A stretch of 64,000 nt of DNA from Octopus vulgaris (taxonomy: Eukaryota). The DNA lies in NCBI GenBank assembly GCA_951406725.2, contig OX597822.1:52824001-52888000 (forward strand), given 5' to 3'. Below, one piece after another: positions 49,715-64,000 of this stretch. Position 1 is the first letter of the stretch, and the number at the start of each line of letters is the position of its first letter. Made by a program: the position numbers and the translations under genes. The notes under the pieces were generated by a model. The model was not told the origin of the DNA and ran no database searches. It saw only the letters and a list, made by a program, of their open reading frames with translations.

Positions 49715-50241
49715 CATACATGTACACAGACTCAAATTTATAAATATACATACACACAAATTTATATATGTTTCATAATCTGTGTGGTGTCTGCGTGTGT
49801 GTTGTGTGGGTGGATACACTCACGCAGACACACACACCTGATTCTAGATTTTAAGGGACACAGAAATGTAGCGTTTACAGTTACCTACCTACCAACATAC
49901 ATACATAAATACATGCATGCATACATACATACATACATACATACATACATAGAGGCAGACAGACATACAGAGAAAAAGACAATTAGACAGGCAGCAGACA
50001 CAGAGAAAGATAGACACTCAATACAGAAAGATAGACACTCAGGCATAATAGACGCAGAAACCTATAATTCTTTTTTTTTTTATTGTTACACTCCAACAAC
50101 ACAGATAACGTATATTAGAATTTCTTGTATGGAATGTGAATAATAATAATAATAATATGAAAATGAGAATGGCTTACCGAAAAAAAATCGTTCAGTATCA
50201 TAGAATATATTTCTGTATGTGTGCGTGTACGTGTGTGTGTG

Positions 50242-50282
<41 letters not shown>

Positions 50283-50924
50283 CTGCGTGTGTGTGTGTGT
50301 GTGTGTGCGTGTTTGTGAGTGAGTGAGTGTATATATATATAGGGTCTCTCACTGATTTTCTCGTAGCTTTGTCTTGTTTCTCATCCAGTGGTATTTAATT
50401 CCGAAAACAAGATATGATGATGGTGTCTCGGTGAGGGTGTATATTAGCTTCTCTTGTCATCCTCCGCTTGCAGCTTCAGTTATATGACTAAGCCGGTTAT
50501 TAGAGAGGCTGGGGGGGGGGACGAGGGGCGGGAGGGAGGAGGAAAGCAATCGTACTGCTAGTTTTTGGTGTTGATGGTGTGATGGCGGTGGAGGTGACGG
50601 TGGTGGTGGTGGTGGTGGTGGCGGTGGTGGTGGTGGTGGTGGTGGATATAGTAGTGGCAGTGCAATATCAGCAGCTAAAATTGTAGGAAAGTAGCAGTAA
50701 GCGTATTGGTTGTAGTATCGGTGGGAGGAGAAAATGAAGATAACAGCTGCTACTTTTGGTTCCAGTGGCGGCGGAGGCATCGGCGGAGGCGGCGGCGATT
50801 GTGGTGGTGGAGGCGGAGGTGGAGGGGGAGATGAAGGTGGTGGTGGTGGTGGTGGTGGTAAGAATCTTAAGGATGTAGTTGTTTTACCCTAAGGCAGCTC
50901 TAGTCGTGTAGACTTAGGATCCAT

Positions 50925-53323
50925 GAGCTGGCAGAAACGTTACCACGCCGGGCGAGATACTTGGCGGTATTTCGTCTGCCGTTACGTTCTGAGTTCATTT
51001 TTTCGGGATCGATAAATTAAGTACCAGTTACGCACTGGAGTCCATGTAATCGACTTAATCTGTTTGTCTGTCCTTGTTTGTCCCCTCTGTGTTTAGCCCC
51101 TTGTGGGTAATAAAGAAATAGGTATTTCGTCTGCCGTTACGTTCTGAGTTCAAATTCCGCCGAGGTCGACTTTGCTTTCGTCTTTTCGGGGTCGATAAAT
51201 TAAGTACCAGTTACGCACTGGGGTCGATATAATCGGCTTAATCCGTTTGTCTGTCCTTGTTTGTCCCCTCTGTGTTTAGCCCCTTGTGGGTAGTAAAGAA
51301 ATAGGTATTTCGTCCGCCGCTACGTTCTGAGTTCAAATTCCGCCGAGGTCAACTTTGCTTTCATCTTTTCGGGGCCGATAAATTAAGTACCAGTTACGTA
51401 CTGGGGTCGATATAATCGACTTAATCCGTTTGTCTGTCCTTGTTTGTCCCCTCTGTGTTTAGCCCCTTGTGGGTAGTAAAGAAGTAGGTATTTCGTCTGC
51501 CGTTACGTTCTGAGTTCAAATTCCGCCGAGGTCAACTTTGCTTTCATCCTTTCGGGGTCGATAAATTAAGTACCAGTTACGTACTGGGGTCGATATAATC
51601 GGCTTAATCCGTTTGTCAGTCCTTGTTTGTCCCCTCTGTGTTTGGCCCCTTGTGGGTAGTAAAGAAATAGGTATTTCATCTGCCGCTACGTTCTGAGTTC
51701 AAATTCCGCCGAGGTCGACTTTGCCTTTCATCCTTTCGGGGTCGATAAATTAAGTACCAGTTACGCACTGGAGTCGATGTAATCGGCTCAATCCGTTTGT
51801 CTGTCCTTGTTTGTCCCCTCTGTGTTTAGCCCCTTGTGGGTAGTAAAGAAATAGGCATTTCGTCCGCCGCTACGTTCTGAGTTCAAATTCCGCCGAGATC
51901 GACTTTGCCTTTCATCCTTTCGGGGTCGATAAATTAAGTACCAGTTTCGCACTGGGTTCGATGTAATCGGCTCAATCCGTATGTCTGTCCTTGTTTGTCC
52001 CCTCTGTGTTTACCCCCTTGTGGGTAGTAAAGAAATAGGTATTTCGTCCGCCGCTACGTTCTGAGTTCAAATTCCACCGAGGTCAACTTTGCTTTCATCC
52101 TTTCGGGGTCGATAAATTAAGTACCAGTTACGCACTGGGGTCGATATAATCGGCTTAATCCGTTTGTCTGTCCTTGTTTGTCCCCTCTGTGTTTAGCCCC
52201 TTGTGGGTTGTAAAGAAATAGGTATTTCGTCCGCCGCTACGTTCTGAGTTCAAATTCCACCGAGGTCAACTTTGCTTTCATCCTTTCGGGGTCGATAAAT
52301 TAAGTACCAGTTACGCACTGGGGTCGATATAATCGGCTTAATCTGTTTGTCTGTCCTTGTTTGTCCCCTCTGTGTTTAGCCCCTTGTGGGTAGTAAAGAA
52401 ATAGGTATTTCGTCCGCCGCTACGTTCTGAGTTCAAATTCCACCGAGGTCAACTTTGCTTTCATCCTTTCGGGGTCGATAAATTAAGTACCAGTTACGCA
52501 CTGGGGTCGATATAATCGGCTTAATCTGTTTGTCTGTCCTTGTTTGTCCCCTCTGTGTTAAGCATCTTGTGGGTAGTAAAGAAATAGGTATTTCGTCCGC
52601 CGCTACGTTCTGAGTTCAAATTCCACCGAGGTCAACTTTGCTTTCATCCTTTCGGGGTCGATAAATTAAGTACCAGTTACGCACTGGGGTCGATATAATC
52701 GGCTTAATCCGTTTGTCTGTCCTTGTTTGTCCCCTCTGTGTTTAGCCCCTTGTGGGTAGTAAAGAAATAGGTATTTCGTCCGCCGCTACGTTCTGAGTTC
52801 AAATTCCACCGAGGTCAACTTTGCTTTCATCCTTTCGGGGTCGATAAATTAAGTACCAGTTACGCACTGGGGTCGATATAATCGGCTTAATCTGTTTGTC
52901 TGTCCTTGTTTGTCCCCTCTGTGTTTAGCCCCTTGTGGATAGTAAAGAAATAGGTATTTCGTCCGCCGCTACGTTCTGAGTTCAAATTCCACCGAGGTCA
53001 ACTTTGCTTTCATCCTTTCGGGGTCGATAAATTAAGTACCAGTTACGCACTGGGGTCGATATAATCGGCTTAATCTGTTTGTCTGTCCTTGTTTGTCCCC
53101 TCTGTGTTTAGCCCCTTGTGGGTAGTAAAGAAATAGGTATTTCGTCCGCCGCTACGTTCTGAGTTCAAATTCCACCGAGGTCAACTTTGCTTTCATCCTT
53201 TCGGGGTCGATAAATTAAGTACCAGTTACGCACTGGGGTCGATATAATCGGCTTAATCCGTTTGTCTGTCCTTGTTTGTCCCCTCTGTGTTTAGCCCCTT
53301 GTGGGTAATAAAGAAATAGGTAT
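50925..53323 (+). repeat. Tandem array of SINE family A: one head unit plus 12 head-less 183-184 bp units
   Basis: Unit starts GGTATTTCGTC at 51121, 51304, 51487, 51670, 51854, 52038, 52221, 52404, 52587, 52770, 52953, 53136; array ends at 53319. Confidence 0.95.
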
Positions 53324-53589
53324 CCCAGTCGTGCTCTTTCCATCGTGTTTCTCTACTCGCGAGGGAATCTTGGTGTTACATTACACCACATTATCCAATG
53401 CATTTTATGTGCGTGTTCTCTGTGAGTGTTTGTGTATGCTTGTAAGGAGAGACTTAGCAGCAGTTACTAGCAGATCGAGAGTCATAGTGAAAACTGATAG
53501 ATGGAATGTAGTAGGAAGACACAAAGCAGGTCATCTCTCTATGTCTCCATTGTCCTGTTTTTGTTCTCAACTTTGATCCTCCATAAACC

Positions 53590-53815
53590 CAAAATTTTAT
53601 GTTGGCATTTATGGGATCAACTGTCTTCGAAGACTCATATTGTCGTTGAATGCTCGAAATGAGAAGTAGAAAGACAGCTGACTACTGATGAAGGGTCGTT
53701 CTCCGTGTTACTTGTCCTGTTTTCCATTTTCTCTCTCTCGTTGTTAACATATTTATGTTTTCGTACTTCATGTTGTTTACACAGTTGGCGACGTCCTGTA
53801 CTCATATATGCAGAA

Positions 53816-53820
<5 letters not shown>
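53590..53820 (+). mobile_element. Penelope-like tail with degenerate hammerhead-like motif
   Basis: ctgtctt-cgaaga...atgctc-GAAA...GTA-gaaagacag, then ctgatgaaggg; ends in (TA)n. Confidence 0.4.
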
Positions 53821-53856
<36 letters not shown>

Positions 53857-54502
53857 CGTGTGTGTGTGTGTGTTTGTGGCCTAGTGGATAGCGTGTGCGA
53901 CTCATGATCATGAAGTTGTGTTTTCGATTCCTTATAAACTAGCAGATTCTAGGTGATGCAATACCACACAAATTTTTAGGAATATTTTCATAACTTTTCC
54001 TATTCTATCTAAAATTCAGCAAATAAATTGAATACAATTCTATCTATTTTATATCTGATAAATATCTAGGAAAATAATATTTGATACTGCTTTTATTCTG
54101 TTTAGAATGACAAGAGTATTGCCTGAATTTAATTCGAGGGTCCAGTGGACCCATAGGGTAATTAATATATAAAGTGAAATTTTCTAGCTTTTATAAACAT
54201 ACGGAAAAGTTCCCATTTGACAAATAAAAGAGAGTCAAGAAAAAATAAGAGTTACGAGAAATCATCAGAGTCAAATAATAAAAACAGTAGGAAAAAGCAA
54301 CTGAAAAACTGAAATAGGTCCATTGGACCCATTGGTAGACAGAAGGTTAAGCGAGTGTCTTCTACCATTGCCCCGGGCCGATCAAAGCACTCCGAGTGGA
54401 TTTGTTTGGCGGAAACTGAAAGAAGCCCGTATATGTACTGGGATCAATTTGTTCGACTAAAGCCTTCGAAGCGGTGCCCCGGCATGACCGCAGTCCGATG
54501 CC

Positions 54503-54742
54503 TTAACACTTGAATATTCAAGTTGGCCATGTCAAACCCAAATATATTGACCTGTCTTACGTTCAAACTGGCCAGATCAGGCTTCTCACAGCTACCCTAC
54601 AATGACATTCTAAAAGAAACAATCACATCATTGAAATCTCAAAATTAATGTATGATAATGTATGATGATGTATGATAAATCCAAAATAATGTGAATGAAT
54701 AAGCATCATATCTGACAGAGTAATCTGAACGCGAAAGGATTG
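54503..54742. mobile_element. Degenerate TTAA-type (piggyBac-like) MITE
   Basis: Ends ttaacacttgaatattca / tgaacgcgaaaggattga resemble decayed TTAACCCTT...AAGGGTTAA termini. Confidence 0.35.
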
Positions 54743-55182
54743 AAGAAATAAAACATAAAAGATACCCTTATTGTCATTTTAATATCTGATAAGGAAGAGT
54801 AAAAAAATGCTTCAGGAAACGAGGACTAATAAGACCGAAATATGTCCAGAGTTGTCTTTTCGAAGATCAGTCTCTAAACGCATTGCATATCGTCATTTCA
54901 TTTTTAATGAATTCAAATTTCATAGTTGTTTTCTTTGCGTTTCTTCAGAATTGTCGACAACGTTAATGATATTTCCTTCCTCACTACAAGCGTGATTTTA
55001 ATTCATTAATCAAATGAATTAATTTAATATTTTCATGTGTTTCTCTACATTTATGTGTAGCAATTATGATTTATCACCGGTTTGAATATGATGTGCAGCT
55101 GCACCAGAAGGATCACCGCCAGCACTGTCTACACCAACACTATCAGCATCATTAGTATTGTACTGCTACTACTACTACCACC

Positions 55183-55214
<32 letters not shown>

Positions 55215-55546
55215 CAACACAACTACCACCACCACCACAACCACCACCACAACCACCACCAACATCACCACCAACACCACCATTACCACTAACACTACCA
55301 CGATCATCATCATAGCCACCAGCATGTTCAACACCCACACCACGATCATCATTGCTACCATTATCACCAGCAGCAGCAGCAGCAGAAAGCATCACCACCA
55401 CCACCACCACCACCACTGCTACTACCGCTACTACCATCACCACCCGACCAGCACAATGACGACGACCCCTTCCTCACTACTACTACTACTACTACTACTA
55501 CTATAAACACATTCGGTGTCAGATCTCCCGTCTGTTCTCATTGCAG

Positions 55547-55596
55547 TCTCAGAGACTAAAAGCAAAAAAAAAAAAAAGAAGAAATCTCACAAAGAT
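55547..55596 (+). CDS. Candidate lysine-rich micro-exon
   Basis: Acceptor ctgttctcattgcAG, frame SETKSKKKKKKKSHKD, donor GTATGT. Confidence 0.25.
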
Positions 55597-56241
55597 GTAT
55601 GTTAGTCCCGCCCTACTCAGTTTCATGTGTGAAACCACATTTGCCTCCCTCTTCACATCTTGTGGCCTTTTCACCAACATAGTTGAAAATTTGCTCTTAA
55701 AATCCACCACAATACGTGTGTGTATATCACAATAGTTTGTTTAGTCGTGGTGAACCCTGATAGAGGGAGTGCCGTGATTAACAGTGTTTCTTTTATTTCT
55801 TTTTCTTTCTTTTTTTTTTTTTTACTGACACAATAGCAAAGGACTACATATTTGAACACTTCTTTTCTATAAGTCGGTTTGATGCAGATTTGGCTGCTAT
55901 TCTGACAGATTGAGTAACCGCACAAAAACTCCCTCGCTGGCTCATAGAAAAAAAGGAACACACGCACAAACAGAAAGACAAAAGACAAAATATAACCTAT
56001 GTTGTATCAGTTTTATAATTCGGAGATGAGGGAAAACATGAACGGTTTCAGTAAACGCTTTCACATGAATAAAAACATTGTTGTTGGTGTTAAGTTGAAG
56101 CTTCTCCAAATCTATGCCTGGATAGAGAATATAATTGGGAAAGGAAAGAGTGAGTTAGGTGTTTCAGACAGGCGCAGAGGGAGTAACAGAATCATTAGAA
56201 CTTTGGTTTTAAATAGTGTATTTTTACTAGCGTTGTCAATT

Positions 56242-56658
56242 TTATTTCTTTATTGCCCACAGGGGTTTAAACATAGAGGGGACAAACAAGGACAGACAAA
56301 GGGATTAAGTCGATTATATCGACTCCAGTGCGTGACTGGTACTTATTTAATCGATCCCGAAAGGATGAAAGGCAAAGTCGACCTCGGCGGAATTTGAACT
56401 CAGAACGTAGCGGCAGACGAAATACCTATTTCTTTACTACCCACAAGGGGCTAAACATAGAGGGGACAAACAAGAACAGACAAACGGATTAAGTCGATTA
56501 CATCGACCCCAGTGCGTAACTGGTACTTAATTTATCGACCCCGAAAGGATGAAAGGTAAAGTCGACCTCGGCGGAATTTGAACTCAGAACGTAACGGCAG
56601 ACGAAATACTGCTACGCATTTCGCCCGGCGTGCTAACGGTTCTACCGGCTCGCCGCCC
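56242..56658 (-). mobile_element. SINE family A dimer
   Basis: Two units joined at GACGAAATACC|TATTTCTTTACT. Confidence 0.9.
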
Positions 56659-57373
56659 TAATTGGCGTTGTCAATTAATCCTTTTCTCATGAAATAATCC
56701 TTTCTGCAATAGACACAAAGACTGAATTTTCGGGGAGGGGGTAAGCCGATTACATCAACCCCAGTACTCAACTGGTACTTATTTTATCGAACCTGAAAGG
56801 ATGAAAGGCAAAGTCGACCACAATTGTTTGATTGGTGCAGGGCTTCAGCTATGATGTAGACTGCCGAGTGAATTGATATCTGTGAATGTAGGTAAAATGG
56901 AAATGGAAGAAAAAGACACATAATGGAGTGGAAAATAATGTATGGGGGGAGATTGTCGGAGATATGAGCAACGGTTTGGATAAGCAACGAACATTGGTGT
57001 AAATGCTAAAATCAAATATAAAGGTTTGAAGTGTTAATCTGGACAGCACAACACAAATCACTTAGACTAAATTAACCGAAATGACATATCAGTAAGAACA
57101 TCAATAATGCGCGCATTACCAACTGGAAACTGGAAACCCTAAGAAAGTAGCTAACTTATGGAGATATATTCTCAAAACAAACAAAAATTATCAGAAATAT
57201 AAATAGAACACTTAAAAGGAAAAAATACTTCAGGAAAACGTAGATTGTAACCGCAGAGCAATGCCAAATAATATCCTAAGCACTGAGACTGTAAAACACG
57301 AGGACAAACGTAAGATACAGAAACTACCGACCAATAACTCGCCTTCCACTGGCATGGAAGTTGCTAACAGGTG

Positions 57374-59718
57374 TTATCACACACATGTGAGTGAGAACAC
57401 TTAGAGATATTTTTGGTATCTAACATATGTCAGATACTGCGAGCGCTGCTTCTGATTGGTCAATCCATGGTGATGACCCGAGGTCACGGTGACGGCACTA
57501 CTTTTGTCATTCATAAGTTACAACTAAACTTTCACGAGCAGGTAGAATGTAGCCATGTAATTAAACAAACATACTATCTTTTTTATACCAGATATCACTT
57601 AAAGTCATATACACATAAAATATAAACATTTCTGGTCGTAATTCAATGTTTTGTTGCCAAAAAAATCACAACATATATCGTCTGCTCGTCGATACTCTTG
57701 CAGTGCAGGTAGATCTATCAACAAGATGGCTACTGTTGTCGATATCAAGGTGAATGATTTTGTTAAGATTGATGGTAATGATGGGGGAAGAGTGTTATCC
57801 GTTGTTCAACCTCTTGGAACATACAGAATGTTCAATGTGAAGATCAATACTGGCCAAGTTCGACATGTTGCTGGATACAGGTTAACAAAGGTACCTGAAA
57901 CAGTGTCATCGACGAGTGGATTGTCATCGAACCCTACATTTAACATCCCTGATGAGGTGTACAATGATCTTCTTCGTGACGATTTCTTTGATGGTAGCCA
58001 TAATGAACTTGAATTTCAACCGAGGTATGATCATTCTGGAATAGATAAATTCGTTCAAGGTAATCAAAATAAAAACACTCTTCGGAAAACAAGTTATGAT
58101 GTTAAACGATTGTTTGCTTTCATGGCGACAAATGGCGACACGCGTCCAATTGAATCTATCGACAAAAGCGAACTTTGTGACATTCTGTGTACTTTCTTTA
58201 TCTCGTTACGAAAACCGGACGGTAGCAACTATGAACCTTTATCTTTGAGGGGAATGTTATTCAGTATTGAAAGATATCTGAAGTCAAAACACTACTCGAC
58301 GTCACTATTCTCGTCACTATTCGTGAAACTACATGACGTACTAAAAACAAAGCAAAAGCTGTTGAAAAGTGAAGGAATGGGAAACCTACCTCGACGCGCG
58401 GAATCTCTCTCCGACGACGATATCAACAAGCTATGGGAATGTGACCAGCTCGGTCCGAACACACCTGAATCCATCCTCAACACGCTATGGTAGAACAACA
58501 CCGTTCACTTTGGTATCCGGAGTGTCAAACCTCACAACGACATGCGATGGGGCGACGTTTCTTTGCATGTTGACAATGAAGGCAAGGAATTCCTTCAGTT
58601 TAGGGAGCGACAGTCCAAAACTTGTCAAGGTGATAATCTCGACCATGCACGTAACATCTACCCAAAAGCATGGGCGACGAATGATGAGCGTTGTCCAGTT
58701 AACCTGTACAAGCGTTTTGCTGATCTGAGACCATCAGATTATTCATCGCCGGATTCACCATTTTATTTGGCCACCAACTGCAAAGATGCCTCCCATTCTC
58801 ATCCCTGGTTTAAACGTCAACCGGTCGGTGTCAACAAACTAGGTACAATTATGAAAAGGATGGCTAAATCAGCTGGTTTGGACAATCGAAGATTCGCGAA
58901 CCATTCAGCACGCAAATACCTTGTGCAGAAGCTCGCTGACCAGAACATTCCTCCAACTGAAATCATGCAGATATCTGGACATCGTAATGTGCAAAGCATC
59001 AATAGTTACAGCAATATTTCCATGGATCGTCATCGTGCCATCAGTAACATCCTTAGTAGCAACAACGACCAGCCTGGTTCGCTTGTACTTCCGTCACACA
59101 CAGCAGCAGCGAGTGCAAGTGAACTCCCCTCCACCGCCAACGTTACGTCGAGTCAATCAATGTGAACTTCTTTGGTTCAGATGCAAAGCGACCTCGTCTC
59201 ACAGATAATGAGGACTGTTAAGTTTTACTGGACTATTGTGCTCTACTCTGACTGACATTGCTACTCGAAAACAGGTTTGAGTATTATTAAAGTTATTGAA
59301 GATTCAATCTGTCTTATGTATTTCTTGAACGTGAACTTGAATGTTAACAAAATGTTAAACAGTCATCAGTTATCAGTCATTTCACCTGAAAACTTAGCGC
59401 TATAAAGTCGGACTATCTTCCTGCGGCATGACATCTTTTACAGTTACACATTGTGACGTTACGGACGTGAAATCAAGCTGTATTCATGCGCGCTTCAACA
59501 CGATGTGAAGAATTTAATTATTAGATTAATAAAATATGGTCGTTTATTCGTGTGTAATAAATAAAATACCAAACTCATTCCCTATGGATACCGTATTTAT
59601 TACAACTCATGGCTTGTAAACGTATCTAACTCGCTTTCGCTCGTTAGACACGTTTACAAGCCACTCGTTGTAATAAATACGGTATCCATAGGGAACTCGT
59701 TTGGTATTCTCTATTTAT
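57374..59718 (+). mobile_element. Crypton-type tyrosine-recombinase DNA transposon
   Basis: TTAT direct repeat at both ends (57374-57377, 59715-59718); removing the element restores the host RT frame; single YR ORF; long 3' hairpin. Confidence 0.88.
57726..59165 (+). pseudogene. Crypton tyrosine recombinase (DUF3504-like), ~479 aa with one in-frame TAG at 58491-58493
   Basis: ORFs 57651..58493 and 58542..59165 are in the same frame; RKPDGSNYEP.SL, HFGIR (R), RQSKT (K), RCPV, NHSAR (HxxR), SGHRN (H), SINSY (Y). Confidence 0.88.
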
Positions 59719-59719
59719 T
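59556..59719. repeat. ~78-bp-arm terminal hairpin of the Crypton
   Basis: aataaataaaataccaaac...tctaactcg ctttcg ctcgttaga...gtttggtattctctatttatt. Confidence 0.9.
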
Positions 59720-61260
59720 GCAAACGATATTTATAATCCTGAGGAGGGTGACCTGCTACCAAAAGATCAGAAAGGATGAAGAAAATGTTCCAAAGAGACG
59801 AACAACCTATTATATATAGATCAGCAAATCCTCCGAAATGTAAAAATCAAGAAGAAAATATTAGCAACGGCGTGGACTGATTACCAAAAGGCATATGAGT
59901 GTGTGCTGCACTCATGGATCCTAGAATTCCTCAGTATATTTGGGATAGCTGAGAATGTTGTCCAGCTCTAACAAAATATTATGCCAAAATGGAGACCTAT
60001 ACTAACATCTGGTCAAGATAAGTTATGTGTAATCAGCATAAGTAGGGGACTATTCCAAGGTGATACACTCTCACTGCTGCTATTTGTGGTTGCTCTTACC
60101 CCTCTTACACTGATCTTGGGAGAGGTTAAATCATACTACAAATTTAGCATGATACAAATGGATGACCTATAATTATTTGCTAAAAGTGAGAAAGCTTTAG
60201 ATTCACTGGTTCAGACTGTTAGAGTTGTGAGTAATGAAATTGTCATGGAGTTTGGGATAGATAAATGTACGTTGCTAGCGATAAAGAGAGGTAGAAAATG
60301 CAAGTCAGAAAGGATTAAACTCCCTAATGAGTGATTGATTCGAGTAATGAATGAGGATGACTGTTACAATTACCAAGGTGTATTGGAGGCAGGTAGAATC
60401 TTCTGTCAGGAAATGAAAGAGAGGGTGAGAAACGAATATTTCAGGAGAGTAAAATGGGTGCTAAGCTCAAAACTGAATGGAGGAAAAAGAATCTCTCTAG
60501 TGAACACATAGGCAGTCTGTCTAATGCGATATCCTGCTGCTTTCTTGAACTAGTCTAAGGAAGAGCTAAGAGAAAAAGATTGTAAAACCAGGAAAACGAT
60601 GTCCATGTACAGATTACTACATCCTAGAGACAGTGTCGATAGATTATACTTACCATAGAAGGAGGTGGGAGGAGACTGATACTAATAGAAAACTGTGTAG
60701 AGATGGCAAAACGCGGTATCGAAGCAACTCAGAAAGATTGATTTTACCTGCCTGAGGAGAGGAGAAAGAAGCCGTGGAGACCACAACGAAATACAAAAAA
60801 AGAAGCAAATAGGAGCGAGAAAGAAATATCTGGAGAAAATAACTACACGGTTACCATCTCAGACAAACGCTGGATGTCGCAGCAGAGGAGTCTTGGTTAT
60901 GGCTGAAGAATGGAGACCTTACGAAAGAAACGGAAGAACTCATAATAACCGCACAAAGCCTGGCAAAAATAGACAAATCCGCGAAAAATGCGAAGTGTAG
61001 GGCTTGTAATAAGAAAGGGAAATTCATTTGGCACAGAAAAAATATGGACGCAGACACGACTGTGTGACCAAGATATTGCAACGGGTCATATTATGGCAAA
61101 GAGGATTTAAAGTAGAAAGAAAATACTACCAACGTCAACCGAAAAGTGAAATAGAAAACGACCAGTGTAAGGTTTTATATGATTTTAATGATCAGACTGA
61201 CTGCGAAATTCAATCAAGGCGATCAGATATTATGATTCTTACAAGGGGAAAAAGAGTGCA

Positions 61261-61634
61261 CCATCTAGAAAAACGCTGCCGCCGTGGTGATCTCATTCTC
61301 GCTCACAACATCATAAGCGGAAAGTGTAACCTCTCGAAAGAGCTGTTCTTCACTCCTGCTCCAGAGCGTCGGCTGCGGGGTCATTCCGAAAAGCTCTACC
61401 TGCGACGATTTCATCTCAATCGAAGGAGAGGAGCTTTCTCCGTCCGGGTTGCGGATCCGTGGAACAAGCTGCCAGACGAGATGGTGAAGATGCCGACGAC
61501 CGCTTTGTTCAAAGTCTCCCTTGACCTCAAGTGGCCTGAACTCTTTACATGAACACCACCCTGTACTTAACTCCATGTCCCCCTACATGGCCTTGCTATT
61601 TGCTTTTGAGCCAAATTAACTAACTAACTAACTA
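61261..61634 (+). mobile_element. CR1-type LINE 3' end
   Basis: LEKRCRRGDLI, RLRGHSEKL, FSVRVADPWNKLP, FKVSLD; (TAAC)n tail. Confidence 0.85.
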
Positions 61635-61924
61635 TATCTACAGGCATCAATGTAATGGTCAAAGGACAGAAAATAGGAAAACATCATAATTTGACGAGGA
61701 AATACGACGACTGAGGAGGGTTTCAAAAAGTAATCTCAGTTGTGATAGGTGCCGTATGTACCGTTACCAACAGACTTAACAGTTTCTTTAATGAGACTGG
61801 TGTAATTATGAGAGCTGCATTAATTCAGAAATCTGATCTATTGAGAACAGTAAGGATTGTAAGAAAGGTCCCCGATATCTAAAGAAAGTGTTTGTGATCC
61901 GATATCAAGAATGTAATACGTCCG

Positions 61925-61958
<34 letters not shown>

Positions 61959-61984
61959 TAATAATAATAATAATAAAGCCTCCC

Positions 61985-62701
61985 CACCAGAAATTACCAA
62001 AAACATGTAATGAAAAGAAATATAACAAGTAACTGCAGAATATGTGGAGATGGACAAGAAACAATAAATCATATTATCTCTGGCTGCCCAGTCCTGGCTA
62101 AGAAGGAATATATTCACAGACATGACAGAGTTGGAACCTACATACACTGGAAGCTATGTCAACATTATGGAATAACAACAGAAAAAAGATGGTATAGGCA
62201 CACACCAGAAAAGGTCACAGAAAACGAGAAAGCAACCATACTCTGGGATATGCCGATACACACAGATAGAGAAATTAAAGCCAACAGACCGGATATAGTT
62301 GTCAGAGATCATGAAGAAAAAAATGCTTTCTAATTGATGTATCAATACCGGCAGATGACAACGTTTCTCTAAAAGAAATGGAGAAACTCTCAAAATACAA
62401 AGACCTAGAAATAGAGGTAACCAGAATGTGGAATCTAAAAACAGAAACAATTCCTATCATAGTAGGTGCATTGGGCATGATAAAAAAATATTCAGACAAA
62501 TACATAACAAAAACACCAGGACTTACAAACACATATAACATACAGAAAATTGCACTACTAGGCACTTCACTCATCCTACGCAGAACACTTTCCATACAAT
62601 AACCATCAGAGCATCACAACAAATCACAGCACATACCTAAGGCACAAAGAGCTGCGCATGGTAGTGAAGTGAAAGCACGCTATAAAAATAAAACTACTGA
62701 A
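61985..62701 (+). mobile_element. Young 5'-truncated Dong/R4 LINE inside (TAA)n
   Basis: CRICGDGQETINHIISGC (CCHC), RHDRV, RPDIVV...IDVSIP, KLSKYKDLEIE, PIIVGALG; one frameshift; (TAA)n on both sides. Confidence 0.9.
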
Positions 62702-62794
<93 letters not shown>

Positions 62795-62795
<1 letters not shown>

Positions 62796-63133
62796 GTGCC
62801 CTAGGTATGATAAGAAATGGATGTCAGAAACATCTAGTAATATCCCAGGAGAACCATGTCTCAGAGAAATCCAAAAGATTATTATACTCACAAGTACTTC
62901 CTACTTCCTTAGAAAAACCCTATCAATTTAAATGTCTGTGTTGTGTTACATGCAGATATTTCTCTACTGCCACTGCCACTTCTCCTCCTCAAGCTTTTAG
63001 TCATACTGTAACATCGCCCTAAGACGCTGGGTGTGTCTCGGCGAGTGACTGTAAAAAACATGCAGACTAAAAAGTAAATAATAATAATAATGATGATAAT
63101 AATAATAATAATGATAATAATAATAATAATAAT

Positions 63134-63169
<36 letters not shown>

Positions 63170-63405
63170 AACAACAACAGCCAAACAACAACAATAATGA
63201 TAATAATAATAATGATAACTATCCATAAAGATCTGAACAGATGGATAGAGGAAATAGGCAAAAAGCCCAGTTTAGTAGAGCTGCAGAAAACAGAGTTATA
63301 AGGGACAGCTAGGATACTTGGGAGAGTTCTTGGCATCCCAAACTACTTGTTATAACCCTATTTTAGGATTCTTTTCTTTTCCAACAGTCTAATCTGTTGA
63401 GTGAA
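62795..63405 (+). mobile_element. Two further short Dong-like 3' ends in (TAA)/(CAA)n
   Basis: ALGMIRNGCQKHL...EIQKI and SLVELQKTEL.GTARILGRVL. Confidence 0.6.
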
Positions 63406-63415
63406 TAATAATAAT

Positions 63416-63451
<36 letters not shown>

Positions 63452-63498
63452 AATAATAACAATAATAATAATAATAACAATAATAATAATAATAAATT

Positions 63499-64000
63499 CC
63501 CTGGTGCAGTACCAGGTAGTGGCTCTCATGTCTTCTGATCTTTACTGATTGAAAGTGTTATCATGTACATTGTTTTGTCTTGGTATAAAAGATGGGCTAG
63601 AGCAAATATTCTACTCAATACCGCAGACTTGCTTGTCAGTTGTTTGACCATAACCAGTTGAGCATGTCTATTAATGGCTGACGATGTGTGCATCTCTGCT
63701 CATGAGCAGAAGTAATGGGAGCATCGTAGCCATGTGTTGAAATTCTTTGGAATTTGAACAATCCACCTCTGCAAACATGGGTGTTTCATTCAATATCCTT
63801 AAACAATCCTTATTCAAGAACCTTTTGAGCTGGATGAGCTTTTCGACCTGAAAAAAATTCTAACTTGGCCTCACCTGCAAGGTCACGAGCTGCTTATCTT
63901 GATATGAGATCACGATGTCGCGCACATATGGTTGTGATGCATGTGCCTAGTGTACCCTCATCAGACGAGTAGTCTGATGGGCTTCATATATTTGTACTCT
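63499..64000. repeat. Repeat family C
   Basis: Homologous to 22292-22792; follows (TAA)n. Confidence 0.8.

Follow-up and report, generated by a model that had tools for sequence, protein, structure and literature searches.

A strand-asymmetric 3' hairpin in an octopus CryptonA element as a candidate folded single-strand recombination site

We have analysed a CryptonA-type element of Octopus vulgaris whose 3' hairpin probably forms, on the bottom strand only, a folded site for the element's own tyrosine recombinase, with a single strand exchange as the predicted reaction. The element lies in a stretch of 64,000 nucleotides (assembly GCA_951406725.2, contig OX597822.1, positions 52,824,001 to 52,888,000), hereafter the window, in whose coordinates all octopus positions are given. 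The bubbles of the hairpin, its tip and the insertion footprints all point to one strand, the bottom one, and since mismatches, tip and footprints agree in this respect, a folded single strand is the likely form in which the element travels, much as in the cholera phage and bacterial integrons. An earlier note, made from the letters of the window, had suggested that the recombinase may use a strand-specific hairpin substrate in place of a simple duplex circle; the bubbles of related elements and the footprints on the bottom strand now speak in favour of that suggestion, which has its basis in sequence comparison. The features referred to in the text are as follows.

57365–57373, forward strand: host left half-site TAW (57365–57367) and 6-bp spacer (57368–57373), from footprint counts
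57374–59714, forward strand: CryptonA-type element, 2,341 bp, its ends set by 103 insertions, BLAST boundaries and contig ends in public runs
57374–57384, forward strand: 5' terminus TTATYACACAC, which provides a WTAT half-site; TTAT is present in 101 or more of 103 copies
57726–59165, forward strand: tyrosine recombinase gene with DUF3504 and phage integrase domains (Pfam PF12012, E=1.6e-25; PF00589, E=2e-8)
59550–59570, forward strand: internal complement of the joined ends, a 5-bp spacer version of the putative recombination site, nearly invariant in 109 copies
59565–59632, forward strand: left arm of the hairpin, with TC bubbles at 59575–59577, 59607–59608 and 59631–59632 (GA on the bottom strand)
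59633–59640, reverse strand: tip, reading GCGAAAGC on the bottom strand, a mini-hairpin sequence
59641–59708, forward strand: right arm of the hairpin, with TC bubbles at 59641–59642, 59665–59666 and 59697–59698
59708–59714, forward strand: element-borne 7-nt spacer TCTCTAT, with the predicted crossover after 59714; found on the left side in 0 of 101 insertions
59715–59718, forward strand: host right half-site WTAT, from footprint counts

Insertions with both ends numbered 103; 101 remain when the tandem pair is set aside, and 88 lie outside TA microsatellites. Loose contig ends in public runs, at 57374 and 59716–59718, coincide with the element limits. The element is a CryptonA in its gene content and in lacking inverted repeats and duplications; the assignment is based on Pfam, on a structural match to QRICH1 and on mollusc and cnidarian homologues. 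Its sole enzyme gene encodes a DUF3504-type tyrosine recombinase; neither a reverse transcriptase nor an RNase H was found among the open reading frames and Pfam matches of the element. Terminal inverted repeats and target-site duplications, the absence of which characterises CryptonA, are lacking, and the direct repeats of 4–6 bp at both ends that mark fungal Cryptons are lacking as well: TTAT was considered as a direct repeat and rejected, as it stands on the right side in just 27 of 101 insertions. The base of the hairpin had been described earlier as coinciding with a TTAT end of the element; the element stops instead at CTCTAT (59714), and the TTAT at 59715–59718 is the host half-site.

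The octopus genome contains well over 100 copies of the element. An 18-nt tip motif has 133 exact matches genome-wide and none in the control, and a DNA search of the genome returned 367 candidate copies. Full-length sister copies measure 2,357–2,427 bp, and most copies are short derivatives with both ends, about 60 of which have one deletion junction in common; non-autonomous copies of 366–418 bp occur. Many longer copies (L007–L030 and others) each carry an internal deletion of their own with both ends intact, a pattern that suggests DNA synthesis with template jumps while the element is moving. For the insertion in the window itself, a pattern search for the empty site gave no match, and the 11 relatives of the host repeat do not span the site. 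Contigs from four public runs contained neither an empty allele nor a back-joint at the element ends, and the right junction of the window was present in three of the four.

The surroundings of the element include a tandem array of at least seven near-identical 183-bp units (52000–53400 and 56243–56820); at a distance of about 3 kb the unit recurs in inverted copies. The unit has no Rfam match, nor was any Rfam match found in 50000–64000, and we take it to be SINE-like from its appearance. Decayed repeat fragments with a non-LTR retrotransposon-like look flank the element at 57100–57373 and 59715–62600.

The copy of the recombinase gene in the window is broken by a TAG at 58491–58493 and by a deletion of approximately 66 nt near 59158; the frame is open in the sister copies L033 and L037, the latter being short of four residues that follow the catalytic tyrosine. 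Among 52 aligned homologues, the catalytic residues R266, K299 and H394 are each kept in 50, and R397, H420 and Y429 in all 52. The predicted fold has its best match in QRICH1, followed by Cre, with the integron integrase in 33rd place, and among named proteins the closest is one of Octopus sinensis (97%), the next ones being from molluscs and a sea anemone. At the N-terminus (57726–57900), a small and confidently predicted five-strand domain covers residues 5 to 58 approximately and is loosely linked to the core. Long open frames at two other loci (L042:460–2256 and L044:943–2499) share 29–31% identity with the recombinase, have no element end motifs near them and are possibly domesticated genes. 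In the relatives L062 (743–827), L086, L089, L113 and L131, a small hairpin with a CCAAT-box-like loop lies upstream of the gene; the 5' region of the octopus element (57450–57465) also has CTGATTGG.

The arms of the 3' hairpin (59565–59630 and 59643–59708) are 66 nt long and 89% complementary, or about 78 bp long with tip and base included, which bears out the near-perfect arms of about 78 bp reported in the earlier note. Folding gave z-scores of -18.3 for the top strand and -18.5 for the bottom strand, and none of 200 shuffles folded as well. The three bubbles of CTC(G/A) against CTCG described before are present too, but the middle CTCA is a rare form, since position 59609 is G in 106 of 109 copies. 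A regular bubble spacing of about 27–31 nt, also claimed, does not hold: with TC at 59575, 59607 and 59631 the gaps are 32 and 24 nt, and as the spacing also varies among relatives, the bubbles are not periodic.

Read on the bottom strand, the bubbles place CGAG opposite CGAG, the context of tandem G·A pairs, whereas on the top strand CTCG stands opposite CTCG. An NMR study, in the part of its text available, found that tandem CGAG gives two G·A pairs of the sheared type, flanked by G-C pairs (PMC10085684). The 8-mer GCGAAAGC of the tip forms a mini-hairpin with a Tm of 76.5 °C, as compared with 33 °C for its T-loop analogue GCTTTTGC (Table 1 of PMC13037366, a source available in part). The outer mismatch of the stem is A·C on the top strand and a G·T wobble on the bottom strand. 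Nearest-neighbour folding favours the bottom strand by just 2–3 kcal/mol, in a model that probably scores sheared pairs incompletely, and in 4 of 17 relatives the fold of the top strand scores at least as well, which counts against a bottom-strand preference.

A scan of metagenome contigs yielded 480 related stretches, from which 80 loci were kept; a terminal-type hairpin is present in 16 of these 80, many of the others being too short. No hairpin was seen, despite more than 2 kb of flank, in L064, L076, L084, L091, L093, L116, L122 and L135, for example, and viral contigs gave one weak locus without a hairpin. A palindrome at L110, which overlaps the end of the gene and carries no motif, was rejected as unrelated. 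Loops were counted in 16 hairpins, from one octopus copy and 15 relatives with stems unrelated in sequence (L103, which duplicates L099, was left out). In the direction of the hairpin end, the two-by-two loops are TC/TC in 20 of 33 cases and GA/GA in 2 of 33, counts that are not independent because the relatives group into about eight families. Most tips of the relatives are C-GNA-G triloops on the GA strand. At seven loci the gene is preceded by the hairpin, whose GA strand is the coding strand, so the polarity goes with the terminus and not with the transcript. Conservation of the bubbles, which the earlier note had named as a check on its idea, came out in support of it: TC/TC is kept in relatives with unrelated stems. 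Within the octopus family the bubbles are not stable, 45 of 70 copies being altered.

The complementarity between GTGTGTAATAA (59550–59560) and the 5' terminus was confirmed, with one mismatch in the window copy and an exact match in the family (T in 101 of 103 copies). What had been called an asymmetric inverted repeat does pair with the 5' terminus, but its partner is the joined ends of the element and not the 5' end alone. At a natural head-to-tail junction (L057), 14 bp pair with 59550–59563, with GAG opposite one T on the bottom strand, after which the stem continues. Compared with the internal complement, the 3' end is longer by two bases, C 59709 and C 59711, both of them G on the bottom strand; the right-end spacer is invariant save for a TCT variant in 19 of 103 copies. 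In one of the 109 copies (L058), the two extra bases are also found in the internal complement. Tandem junctions were rejected as proof of circles, as the two head-to-tail junctions may stem from insertion into an existing left end. Among 14 relatives, an exact far-end complement was found in five (11–16 nt, reached in at most 2 of 200 shuffles), different in sequence from one to another and each starting with TTAT; the exact test failed in the other nine, near matches being seen in three further relatives and no match in the remainder. In duplex form the spacer measures 7 bp in the joined ends and 5 bp in the internal copy, against 6 bp in the target; as both duplex spacers mismatch the target, a matching hybrid site would arise from the fold only.

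The target consensus, based on 101 insertions, is TAW-N6-^WTAT. Among the 88 insertions outside TA microsatellites, the left half-site has A at -8 in 68 (p=2e-18) and T at -9 in 49, and the TA is placed at a spacer of 6 in 41, of 5 in two and of 7 in seven. In the right half-site, T at +2 occurs in 85, A at +3 in 72 and T at +4 in 69 of the 88, and the first base, counted over 103 insertions, is A in 49, T in 45, G in 8 and C in 1. The target is a loose, two-part one with a 6-bp spacer, and not a fixed site of the loxP kind. The element is always positioned at the right edge of the target spacer, with its own spacer brought along. Target duplications of 3–6 bp were seen in 0–4 of 88 insertions, and empty paralogous sites have a clean join in three of four cases, the fourth differing by 4 nt. 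The host base at -1 is T in 57 of 88, and a host C stands beside 8 of 19 TCT-ended copies against 7 of 82 TAT-ended ones (p=0.001); the bases adjoining the cut are matched between element and host. Because tyrosine recombinases cleave each of the two strands at the 5' border of the spacer, the occupied spacer edge corresponds to the bottom-strand cut. Spacers are never found on the other side, nor are they carried over from the host, which argues against two exchanges across unlike spacers. Insertion at one edge without duplication fits one strand exchange on the bottom strand.

In the mechanism that we propose, the joined ends and the internal complement would pair to form a hybrid site that has two additional G bases, and the long stem, the sheared G·A blocks and the mini-hairpin tip would ensure good folding of the bottom strand only. 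The recombinase would cut folded site and duplex target alike on the bottom strand and swap one strand pair, checking one to three bases beside the cut, and the top strand would be made later by replication or repair. Release of the circle would be the same reaction, this time between the folded right end, with a stem lengthened by the host WTAT, and the duplex left end. Around the time of insertion, host repair may hit the folded intermediate, often erasing bubbles or flipping the tip, and copies repaired or flipped in this way would probably be poor donors. A wider proposal, to which we give an even chance of being right, is that the CryptonA elements of animals, the source lineage of ZMYM and QRICH1, travel as a single-stranded circle: a self-encoded Cre-like enzyme would read the fold of G·A pairs and mini-hairpin and paste a single strand into a loosely defined target whose spacer is 6 bp long, and the mosaic copies of the octopus genome would be fossils of the fold.

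These mosaic copies were scored in one assembly, on which their states rest. Among the 109 copies 33 state classes were distinguished, some of them resolved only in part; six copies, truncated or tip-deleted, were excluded from the scoring of alterations, and frequencies are taken from 70 copies selected by pattern, the first 30, picked by likeness to the window, being left out. Altered copies make up 45 of the 70, either with a bubble rewritten from the other arm or with the 14-nt tip inverted (23 flips), and in 22 right arms TGAG is found, which complements the CTCA of the left arm. Every one of the 23 tip flips is accompanied by an arm change, as compared with 22 of 47 unflipped copies (p=3e-6). 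Point mutations in the stem are confined to one arm in 125 cases and symmetric in four.

Alteration is not significantly correlated with age (rho -0.20, n=56, or -0.22, n=54, p=0.11): 15 of the 17 youngest copies and 13 of the 22 oldest are altered, and private changes amount to 0.87% in altered copies and 1.06% in the others. As the altered copies are not older, the alterations likely date to around insertion and are not gradual. The loss of the motif in about two of three copies, together with its persistence across families, implies selection, and the bubbles are probably re-selected; it should be noted that hairpins in altered form are common products as well. A short-tip lineage of 14 copies (L250–L263) has neither the inner two bubbles nor the mini-hairpin and yet has spread, which shows that the inner stem and the mini-hairpin are dispensable and makes the stem base the core. 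In two of its members (L251 and L262) the remaining tip is flipped and the outer bubble rewritten.

Repaired and flipped copies might also be artefacts of assembly or polishing, a reading that touches the argument on timing and selection only and that we hold to be quite unlikely. Palindromes in multicopy repeats are prone to mis-polishing, and the one contig of single-copy depth that covers the hairpin has 9 differences. Against this, exact arm-templated blocks are found at many separate loci, the short-tip copies L251 and L262 among them, the base bulge has been copied into the internal complement in one copy, and flipped tips are found in relatives from metagenome assemblies as well (L105 and L137). 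The stems of these two relatives (L105:4670–4819 and L137:1875–2030) are near-perfect, and they may be products of the mosaic process or of assembly.

The footprints and the strand asymmetry would be explained just as well if the site were the bottom arm of a cruciform, extruded from duplex DNA at the donor locus or in a circle, with one strand exchanged and no free single-stranded circle. In favour of a cruciform, repair from one arm to the other and inverted tips are typical results of cruciform or template-switch processing. Pairing with the far 5' terminus, however, requires that the ends be joined beforehand, the TC/TC bubbles of the top arm should disfavour extrusion, and a single exchange on a duplex circle would be harder for replication to resolve; we regard a cruciform as unlikely. 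A still less probable reading is that the recombinase uses duplex ends and that the hairpin is a strand-specific signal for priming or protection, acting as a second-strand origin or a nuclease-resistant cap: GCGAAAGC is present at the priming site of phage G4 and resists exonuclease (PMC13037366, in the part available), and the unique internal deletions with both ends kept point to DNA synthesis. Such a signal leaves unexplained why the complement of the joined ends runs across the crossover and recurs in relatives with a changed sequence, and it accounts neither for the pattern of 7-bp and 5-bp spacers against a 6-bp target nor for insertion at one edge. Tandem GA pairs and GAAA loops are favourable in RNA too, and the hairpin could be a feature at the RNA level, or else a by-product of inverted duplication, in an element moving as a classic duplex circle by two exchanges across short direct repeats. 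This is the Crypton model given in the available text of two publications (PMC3212892, PMC13465315), and we find it highly improbable for the octopus element: direct repeats are missing, as seen from the TTAT counts, the spacer is never on the other side nor derived from a former host, the polarity tracks the end and not the gene, and the bubbles persist across families despite their loss in most copies.

With its proposed folded bottom-strand site, the octopus element resembles the attP of phage CTX, integron attC sites and the SE elements, and belongs to none of these. In CTX attP(+), as described in the accessible part of PMC3442271, single-stranded DNA folds so that two inverted sites make one, one strand pair is exchanged, the overlap bases are unpaired, replication finishes the product and tandem copies are formed. 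The octopus element fits such a scheme in sequence layout and in footprints, and its putative hybrid site with the two extra G bases may be likened to the pairing of attP1 with attP2. CTX uses the host XerCD and a fixed dif site (PMC3442271), whereas the octopus element has its own enzyme and dispersed, degenerate targets. Unlike CTX, it also appears able to exit the chromosome again. The integron integrase IntI has a specific helix that binds extrahelical bases. Likeness to attC, judging from the portion of PMC5027507 available, extends to extra bases near the crossover, to a variable stem sequence and, as predicted for the octopus element, to bottom-strand selectivity through unpaired features and purine skew; in contrast to integrons, the octopus element occurs as dispersed single insertions without a cassette array or attI, and, unlike in attC, tandem G·A blocks together with a GNA/GNNA tip close its stem. 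SE-6945 and SE-6283 are tyrosine-recombinase elements too; only one of their strands is circularised, as predicted here, but they have four genes and a 6-bp donor-derived footprint (PMC9345347, available in part), as against one gene and an invariant spacer here. DIRS elements share an internal stretch complementary to the ends and a tyrosine recombinase (PMC13465315, available in part), whereas the octopus element is without reverse transcriptase, RNase H and long inverted terminal repeats.

In the available text of Kojima and Jurka 2011 (PMC3212892), the CryptonA of animals are like the octopus element in having one DUF3504 gene, a length of about 2–2.4 kb, many non-autonomous derivatives and no target duplication. 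Terminal repeats are not reported there for animal Cryptons ('n.d.' in every CryptonA entry), the excised-circle model is cited and the word 'hairpin' is absent from the main text; the one-strand fold, the junction complement and the bipartite target are features of the octopus element that this text does not contain. A paper from 2026 still presents the direct-repeat model of Cryptons (PMC13465315), human Eulor5/6 have been tied to Cryptons without the word hairpin (PMC5753468), and hairpins are mentioned for Helitrons only in PMC4455052, in each case as far as the accessible sections go. No published description of such a Crypton end structure was found in the literature searched, with Repbase records and subscription papers outside the search.

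The mechanism by which Cryptons move is so far undemonstrated, and those of animals have been described without terminal repeats. The octopus family provides defined substrates (folded site, strand, crossover base and target consensus) together with natural enzymes with open frames, which makes the proposed reaction directly testable. A one-protein integrase that takes folded single-stranded DNA and leaves no duplication could serve gene delivery. If the proposal is true, the structure-read single-strand recombination of bacteria and phages would operate in animal genomes too.
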